Assembly: GCF_003334765.1 (NCBI RefSeq)
Contig: NZ_QOWT01000083.1
Strand: one strand, 5' to 3'
DNA: 1,198 nt
Source: Escherichia coli
GTDB taxonomy: Bacteria > Pseudomonadota > Gammaproteobacteria > Enterobacterales > Enterobacteriaceae
The position numbers and the translations under genes are program-made. The notes beneath the pieces are model-generated. The model was not told the origin of the DNA, ran no database searches, and was given only the letters and a program-made list of their open reading frames with translations. This document shows positions 4 through 1,198 of this stretch, one piece after another. How positions within the stretch are numbered: the first letter of the stretch is position 1; every line of letters starts with the position of its first letter.

Positions 4-19
4 GGAAGGTGCGAATAAG
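4..19. repeat. IS5 terminal inverted repeat, transposase-distal end (16 bp, GGAAGGTGCGAATAAG)
   Basis: Matches the reverse complement of 1183..1198 at 15 of 16 positions (mismatch at IR position 13, window position 16: T here versus C at the other end). Complementarity does not extend inward beyond 16 bp. Confidence 0.9.
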
Positions 20-149
20 CGGGGAAATACTTCTCGGCTGACTCAGTCATTTCATTTCTTCATGTTTGAGCCGATTTTTTCTCCCGTAAATGCCTTGAAC
101 CAGCCTATTTAGACCGTTTCTTCGCCATTTAAGGCGTTATCCCCAGTTT
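20..149. promoter_or_regulatory. Non-coding subterminal region of IS5 downstream of the transposase; AT-tract-rich, candidate for the bent-DNA/IHF-binding region reported for this end of IS5
   Basis: Seen in sequence: no long ORF; several T/A runs (e.g. 'catttcatttctt' 48..60, 'gatttttt' ~73..80, 'agttttta' ~145..152) and an 11-bp palindrome TGACTCAGTCA at 39..49. Established knowledge: the transposase-distal end of IS5 is reported to carry an IHF site and intrinsically curved DNA that can activate adjacent promoters. I could not locate a clean IHF consensus (WATCAANNNNTTR) by eye, so exact site placement is unresolved. Confidence 0.3.
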
Positions 150-1166
150 TTAGTGAGATCTCTCCCACTGACGTATCATTTGGTCCGCCCGAAACAGGTT
201 GGCCAGCGTGAATAACATCGCCAGTTGGTTATCGTTTTTCAGCAACCCCTTGTATCTGGCTTTCACGAAGCCGAACTGTCGCTTGATGATGCGAAATGGG
301 TGCTCCACCTTGGCCCGGATGCTGGCTTTCATGTATTCGATGTTGATGGCCGTTTTGTTCTTGCGTGGATGCTGTTTCAAGGTTCTTACCTTGCCGGGGC
401 GCTCGGCGATCAGCCAGTCCACATCCACCTCGGCCAGCTCCTCGCGCTGTGGCGCCCCTTGGTAGCCGGCATCGGCTGAGACAAATTGCTCCTCTCCATG
501 CAGCAGATTACCCAGCTGATTGAGGTCATGCTCGTTGGCCGCGGTGGTGACTAGGCTGTGGGTCAGGCCACTCTTGGCATCGACACCAATGTGGGCCTTC
601 ATGCCAAAGTGCCACTGATTGCCTTTCTTGGTCTGATGCATCTCCGGATCGCGTTGCTGCTCTTTGTTCTTGGTCGAGCTGGGTGCCTCAATGATGGTGG
701 CATCGACCAAGGTGCCTTGAGTCATCATGACGCCTGCTTCGGCCAGCCAGCGATTGATGGTCTTGAACAATTGGCGGGCCAGTTGATGCTGCTCCAGCAG
801 GTGGCGGAAATTCATGATGGTGGTGCGGTCCGGCAAGGCGCTATCCAGGGATAACCGGGCAAACAGACGCATGGAGGCGATTTCGTACAGAGCATCTTCC
901 ATCGCGCCATCGCTCAGGTTGTACCAATGCTGCATGCAGTGAATGCGTAGCATGGTTTCCAGCGGATAAGGTCGCCGGCCATTACCAGCCTTGGGGTAAA
1001 ACGGCTCGATGACTTCCACCATGTTTTGCCATGGCAGAATCTGCTCCATGCGGGACAAGAAAATCTCTTTTCTGGTCTGACGGCGCTTACTGCTGAATTC
1101 ACTGTCGGCGAAGGTAAGTTGATGACTCATGATGAACCCTGTTCCATGGCTCCAGATGACAAACAT
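150..1166 (-). CDS. insH: IS5 transposase InsH (Ins5A), DDE-type; 338 codons from ATG at 1166..1164 to TAA at 152..150; alternative start at ATG 1130..1128 would give 326 aa ([12 protein letters not shown]...)
   Basis: Seen in sequence: uninterrupted 1017-nt ORF on the minus strand, verified codon by codon at both ends. Established knowledge: the translation is recognisably IS5 InsH, with IS4/IS5-type catalytic motifs: D155 in 'LVDATII' (codon 702..704), D232 in 'SADAGYQG' (codon 471..473), E288 in '[12 protein letters not shown]' (codon 303..305, R-x3-E-x6-K). Which ATG is used cannot be decided from sequence; neither has a strong Shine-Dalgarno. Confidence 0.95.
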
Positions 1167-1182
1167 GATCTCATATCAGGGA

Positions 1183-1198
1183 CTTGTTCGCACCTTCC
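1183..1198. repeat. IS5 terminal inverted repeat, transposase-proximal end (16 bp; + strand CTTGTTCGCACCTTCC)
   Basis: Reverse complement GGAAGGTGCGAACAAG pairs with 4..19 at 15 of 16 positions. The element terminus coincides with the last base of the window. Confidence 0.9.

Follow-up and report, generated by a model that had tools for sequence, protein, structure and literature searches.

The single mismatch between the terminal repeats of IS5: a standard state of the element, probably of near-neutral effect

The window that we have analysed, i.e. the whole stretch of 1,198 nucleotides of Escherichia coli DNA shown above, holds an insertion sequence whose two terminal inverted repeats differ from each other at a single position, and this raises two questions: does the difference belong to this copy or to the element as such, and does it serve a function? 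A DDE transposase binds each terminal repeat of its element and cleaves at the tip, and each new end derives from the same end of the donor. In IS10/Tn10, with its outside and inside ends, and in IS50/Tn5, with its OE and IE, the ends differ at several positions, and functional consequences of these differences have been measured. The features of the window to which we refer are the following:

1-3, no strand assigned: flank TAA, probably the last 3 bases of a 4-bp target-site duplication
4-1198, minus strand (the transposase strand): complete IS5, 1195 bp, which is the length of IS5
4-19, plus strand: distal terminal inverted repeat (IRR in the ISfinder orientation), GGAAGGTGCGAATAAG
16, plus strand: position 13 of the inverted repeat (IR), distal repeat; T, the mismatched base
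4-180, minus strand: "IB" region with intrinsically bent DNA and an IHF site; coordinates inferred from the published description
150-1130, minus strand: transposase gene InsH/Ins5A, 326 aa in the RefSeq annotation
1183-1198, minus strand: proximal terminal inverted repeat (IRL), GGAAGGTGCGAACAAG on the minus strand
1186, minus strand: position 13 of the proximal IR; reads C along the repeat, the plus-strand base being G

The element is an ordinary, complete IS5, as its length, its repeats, its transposase family and its near-identity with the reference all show. Over its full length it is 99.9% identical to E. coli loci annotated as "IS5-like element IS5 family transposase", and the 1195 bp between the tips of its repeats equal the length of the IS5 mobile_element annotated in phage P1. 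With the IS5 reference (GenBank J01735, from lambda KH100) it shares the 1195 bp, both repeats with the T/C mismatch, the transposase protein and, to judge from the TAA, probably a flank of the YTAR type. The copy in P1, which is identical to that reference, is separated from the window element by 5 differences in 1195, i.e. by near-identity at the isoform level, and all five are internal: the A at 29 (a minority base; T in the reference), the private C at 100, and changes at positions 310, 552 and 1145. The duplication of the target is only half visible: the TAA at the left edge fits the last three bases of YTAR, and the window stops at the last base of the element; CTAA, TTAA, CTAG and TTAG flank other IS5 copies on both sides.

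The transposase gene has an intact frame that encodes WP_000019402.1 without change, and the element may be able to transpose; this RefSeq CDS lies at the equivalent coordinates in three annotated loci (L001-L003), from which the window departs at position 100 alone, a site that the CDS does not cover. In the list of open reading frames, the frame begins further upstream than the annotated start, with an ATG at 1166 (150-1166, 338 aa). The product is a single transposase of the IS5-type DDE class, with 365.5 bits against the NCBIfam model NF033581 (IS5 family transposase; cut-off 140) and with the Pfam domains DDE_Tnp_1 (4e-35) and DUF772 (6.7e-21). Four open frames on the plus strand, at 199-465, 225-479, 365-523 and 558-854, run opposite to the transposase gene; according to the literature, ins5A contains an ins5CB operon that is transcribed divergently (PMC11677980).

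The mismatch itself is readily located. The right arm, 1183-1198, reads CTTGTTCGCACCTTCC on the plus strand, and the repeat finder pairs it with the left arm over 16 nt at 94% complementarity, i.e. at 15 of the 16 positions; when the left arm is compared base by base with the reverse complement of the right arm, the only mismatch is found at IR position 13, with T against C, while inward of IR position 16 there are only scattered identities and the repeat match stops. Both methods thus bear out the sequence-only reading, which had placed the mismatch at IR position 13, at window positions 16 and 1186. The chance of at least 15 complementary positions of 16 at two fixed termini is 49/4^16 = 1.1e-8, hence the pairing of the repeats is not due to chance. 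The two arms carry the 16-bp imperfect repeat that is typical of IS5, GGAAGGTGCGAA(T/C)AAG, and IS5 has been described as flanked by two "16 bp imperfect" inverted repeats (PMC11677980, 2024).

We have compared these ends with those of the reference and of further copies. The record of phage P1 describes its IS5 as "100 pct identical (0 gaps)" to the IS5 of lambda KH100, GenBank J01735; the ends of this copy read GGAAGGTGCGAATAAG on the transposase-distal side and GGAAGGTGCGAACAAG on the transposase-proximal side, with TTAG as the target duplication. A reference IS5 with identical ends has been sought here, and the J01735-identical copy in P1 proves to have mismatched ends. Our fetched set consists of 42 IS5/ISKpn26 copies of 91-99.9% identity, taken from chromosomes of E. 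coli, from plasmids and from further genera; among their hosts are E. coli, Klebsiella, Citrobacter, Enterobacter, Edwardsiella, Yersinia and Aeromonas. The distal 16-bp repeat is identical in 41 of the 42, all 41 with T at the equivalent of window position 16, and the proximal 16-bp repeat, with G at the equivalent of position 1186, is identical in all 42. The C/T pair persists also in copies that have diverged immediately inward of the repeats, e.g. CGGGGAAAT vs CAGGTCATT.

ISKpn26 is an IS5-like element of Klebsiella and of plasmids from other Enterobacterales. The fetched copies of ISKpn26 share their 16-bp repeats with the window, including the C at position 13 of the proximal repeat and the T at that of the distal one, and they have its gene layout; like other IS5 copies, they are flanked by a 4-bp YTAR duplication. 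They differ from the window in their nucleotide identity (about 91%), in their length (1196 bp) and in the bases that lie immediately inside both repeats. The published IRL of ISKpn26 equals the proximal repeat of the window and the published ends show the C/T pair (PMC10569121), while the published reference IRR has an extra difference at position 5, GGAAAGTG... The C/T pair therefore predates the split between IS5 and ISKpn26, and it is universal in IS5.

Within E. coli, we have surveyed 5,426 complete genomes. Queries of 60 nt from the two ends have located 8,112 distal-end and 7,301 proximal-end places; sorted by identity band, these queries were confounded by common polymorphisms at positions 20 and 29 and by partial alignments in the band of at least 99%, and probes of 28-30 nt that span position 13 were used instead, with an exact 28-mer word required and with concatenated substitution probes separated by a 2-nt spacer. 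The 30-nt probes for the native ends have matched 15,122 places in the 5,426 genomes, about 98% of all IS5 end-places, whereas probes in which position 13 was changed to each of the other three bases, made for three distal-end haplotypes and for the proximal end, have matched exactly one. This single exception (L007, 1401-2595) is the yhcE copy of E. coli BHUCD01, which has C in place of the distal T and thereby a perfect 16-bp repeat; the copy is otherwise of the reference type. The same assembly contributes 4 of the 13 non-clonal variant ends of the whole collection, and with so many in one assembly the yhcE variant is possibly artefactual: it may be an assembly or sequencing error, or else a recent private mutation.

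The mismatch is thus the long-known standard state of IS5, an already described property. This agrees with the proposal, made from the window's letters, that the asymmetry is canonical: the same ends occur in P1/J01735, in 41 of the 42 fetched copies and at the 15,122 E. coli places. These same observations refute a point mutation or a sequencing error private to this copy, a reading to which we attach practically no weight. Rare bases do occur elsewhere in the window (the private C at 100 and the minority A at 29), none of which supports such a reading. For annotators, the consequence is that a one-base difference between the ends of IS5 should not be read as a mutation or as the sign of a defective copy; the result confirms a normal IS5 and leaves the understanding of the element unchanged, with a consensus of the IS5-group repeat and a measure of the rarity of end variation in E. 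coli as modestly useful by-products.

That measure comes from a scan of every single substitution at IR positions 1-16 in four haplotypes, which has found 124 variant places against the 15,122 native ones. Two clonally inherited variants, each at a single locus, account for 111 of the 124 (hits H146-H201): a G>A change at proximal position 16 in the yghO copy of DH1, DH5alpha, JM109, XL1-Blue, TOP10 and similar K-12 strains, and an A>G change at proximal position 11 in a lineage to which strain 042 belongs. The remaining 13 places, spread over 10 records, fall at positions 1, 3, 5, 7, 9 and 13. The 16 IR positions are all near-invariant within IS5, position 13 to the same degree as the rest; this fits simple descent together with purifying selection on the whole repeat, and it speaks neither way on whether position 13 has a special role.

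More can be learned from the relatives of IS5, which we have collected by a protein-guided scan of one genome per species: 80 loci of 57-100% transposase identity. The automatic repeat finder returned spurious pairs at some of these loci, from partly palindromic target duplications, and was replaced by anchoring of the ends on the conserved core together with a length filter; 13 of the 80 loci, incomplete or poorly anchored, were dropped, and the 67 retained reduce to 32 distinct repeat pairs, many with matching YTAR duplications. The consensus of the repeat over these 32 distinct relatives (L040-L094, 57-87% transposase identity) is GGAAnnTnnGAnnAAG, with six degenerate positions arranged as three variable dinucleotides, 5-6, 8-9 and 12-13, between invariant bases; ten core positions have served as anchors, so that their invariance is partly circular, while the variability of positions 5, 6, 8, 9, 12 and 13 is not.

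The counts that follow ignore kinship among the 32 relatives, which are phylogenetically non-independent. With the two ends taken together, position 13 has C in 29 cases and T in 35; the combinations are T/T in 13 relatives, C/C in 10, proximal T with distal C in 5 and proximal C with distal T in 4, i.e. the same base stands at both ends in 23 of the 32, and the ends are unlike in 9, in both orientations. An asymmetry conserved in position and orientation is not found at position 13 among the 32 relatives; the further remark of the sequence-only reading, on unequal use of unlike ends, concerns other insertion sequences in general and makes no claim on IS5. Since either base is used at either end, the mismatch of IS5 falls at a position that is degenerate in the group, and its direction is not conserved. 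Imperfection as such is common: only 7 of the 32 have perfect 16-bp repeats and 25 have imperfect ones, with mismatches between the ends at position 5 (13 elements), 6 (11), 12 (11), 13 (9), 4 (6) and 8 (5). The published ends of ISEc68, GGAAGGTGCGAATAAGT and GGAAGCTGCGATTAAGT, fit the same pattern, as do those of ISKpn26.

The explanation that we favour, and that we consider likely, is that the mismatch is an inherited, tolerated and near-neutral difference at a degenerate position, and not a designed asymmetry; we infer its near-neutrality from the comparison of sequences. The 16-bp repeats would be the sites that the DDE transposase of IS5 recognises and cuts, and the C beside the start of the transposase gene and the T at the far end would be ancestral to the IS5/ISKpn26 lineage. 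Because each end would be copied from itself at every transposition, with no process that homogenises the two, the difference would be passed on unchanged and inherited indefinitely. The relatives use either base at either end, and the transposase therefore most likely tolerates both C and T, in which case the mismatch would have little or no effect. As a counterpoint to neutrality, position 13 is as invariant within IS5 as every other position, with no sign of relaxed constraint; this constancy could equally reflect selection that is specific to each end, and degeneracy among the relatives is no proof that the transposase of IS5 is indifferent, since transposase and ends could co-evolve. Our search of the accessible literature has brought up neither binding data nor transposition data on position 13, no measured difference in end usage for IS5, and no relevant mutational analysis of its ends.

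An alternative that we regard as rather unlikely is that the mismatch is functional, in that it might give the two ends unequal affinities for the transposase, fix their order, or provide in the proximal C a base that serves the weak promoter of the transposase gene. Such a role would agree with the strictness with which both states are kept (in 41 of the 42 fetched copies of IS5/ISKpn26, and with a single exception to 15,122 ends in E. coli), but all 16 positions are equally invariant within IS5, so that the constancy of position 13 is not special. One relative from Castellaniella (L090), with 60% transposase identity, has the proximal-C/distal-T pair as its only mismatch; across the relatives, however, the orientation is unconserved, at 5 against 4, with the same base at both ends in the other 23, and seven relatives have perfect repeats. 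The native promoter of ins5A is reported to overlap the IRL in part (PMC11677980), yet this promoter has been described as extremely weak, and a consensus promoter scan has found no sigma-70-like site in the window.

The ends of IS5 are, moreover, already unequal for another reason: bent DNA and an IHF site lie in a subterminal region at one end only (PMC2753651). Known as the IB region, this is a region of 177 bp at the 3' end of IS5 (PMC2753651; PMC11677980), and its presence at the transposase-distal end alone makes the ends unequal independently of the mismatch in the repeats. In having non-identical ends and an IHF site near one end only, IS5 resembles IS10/Tn10 and IS50/Tn5, and, as in those functionally asymmetric elements, there is a sequence difference within the repeat that the transposase binds; in IS5, unlike in them, this amounts to one base, at the degenerate position 13, and is known here from sequence alone. 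Broader in scope, and to our judgement very improbable, is the suggestion that selection has given the IS5 group imperfect ends of unequal affinity for the transposase, a design whose minimal form would be the position-13 mismatch of IS5. A possible directional bias at position 12 offers a hint toward it, the proximal A/distal T combination occurring in 9 elements and the reverse in 2, by statistics that ignore phylogeny.

Within the IB region, the window has a base of its own: the C at position 100 is private, with T in all 42 of the fetched IS5/ISKpn26 copies, and among E. coli genomes, plasmids and phages no match exceeds 99.9%. On the transposase-sense strand, position 100 is the base just 5' of TTCAAGGCATTT, a candidate core of the IHF site: its TCAA, with TT four bases later, fits the IHF-site core that PMC2753651 gives for the IB region. 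In its distal-end haplotype, C at 20 and A at 29, the window represents a minority form. Most copies, the reference among them, have T at 29, and an exact match to window positions 4-63 occurs in only 64 of 2,038 E. coli records. In the fetched copy from K-12 MG1655 (L004), position 20 is also T, so that the repeat reaches 17 bp, still with only the one mismatch.

Some of the IS5/ISKpn26 copies (L005, L011, L014, L016, L019 and others) have unlike 4-bp flanks on their two sides, e.g. CTAA/CTAG and ACAG/CTAA, a pattern that recombination between copies, or deletions next to them, would be expected to leave. IS5 is also present in 20 phage records, among them P1, phage 434 (in nmpC) and JL22 (hits H212-H219), and a 2.5-kb record labelled Campylobacter phage B14, which is 99.6% identical to IS5, looks like contamination.
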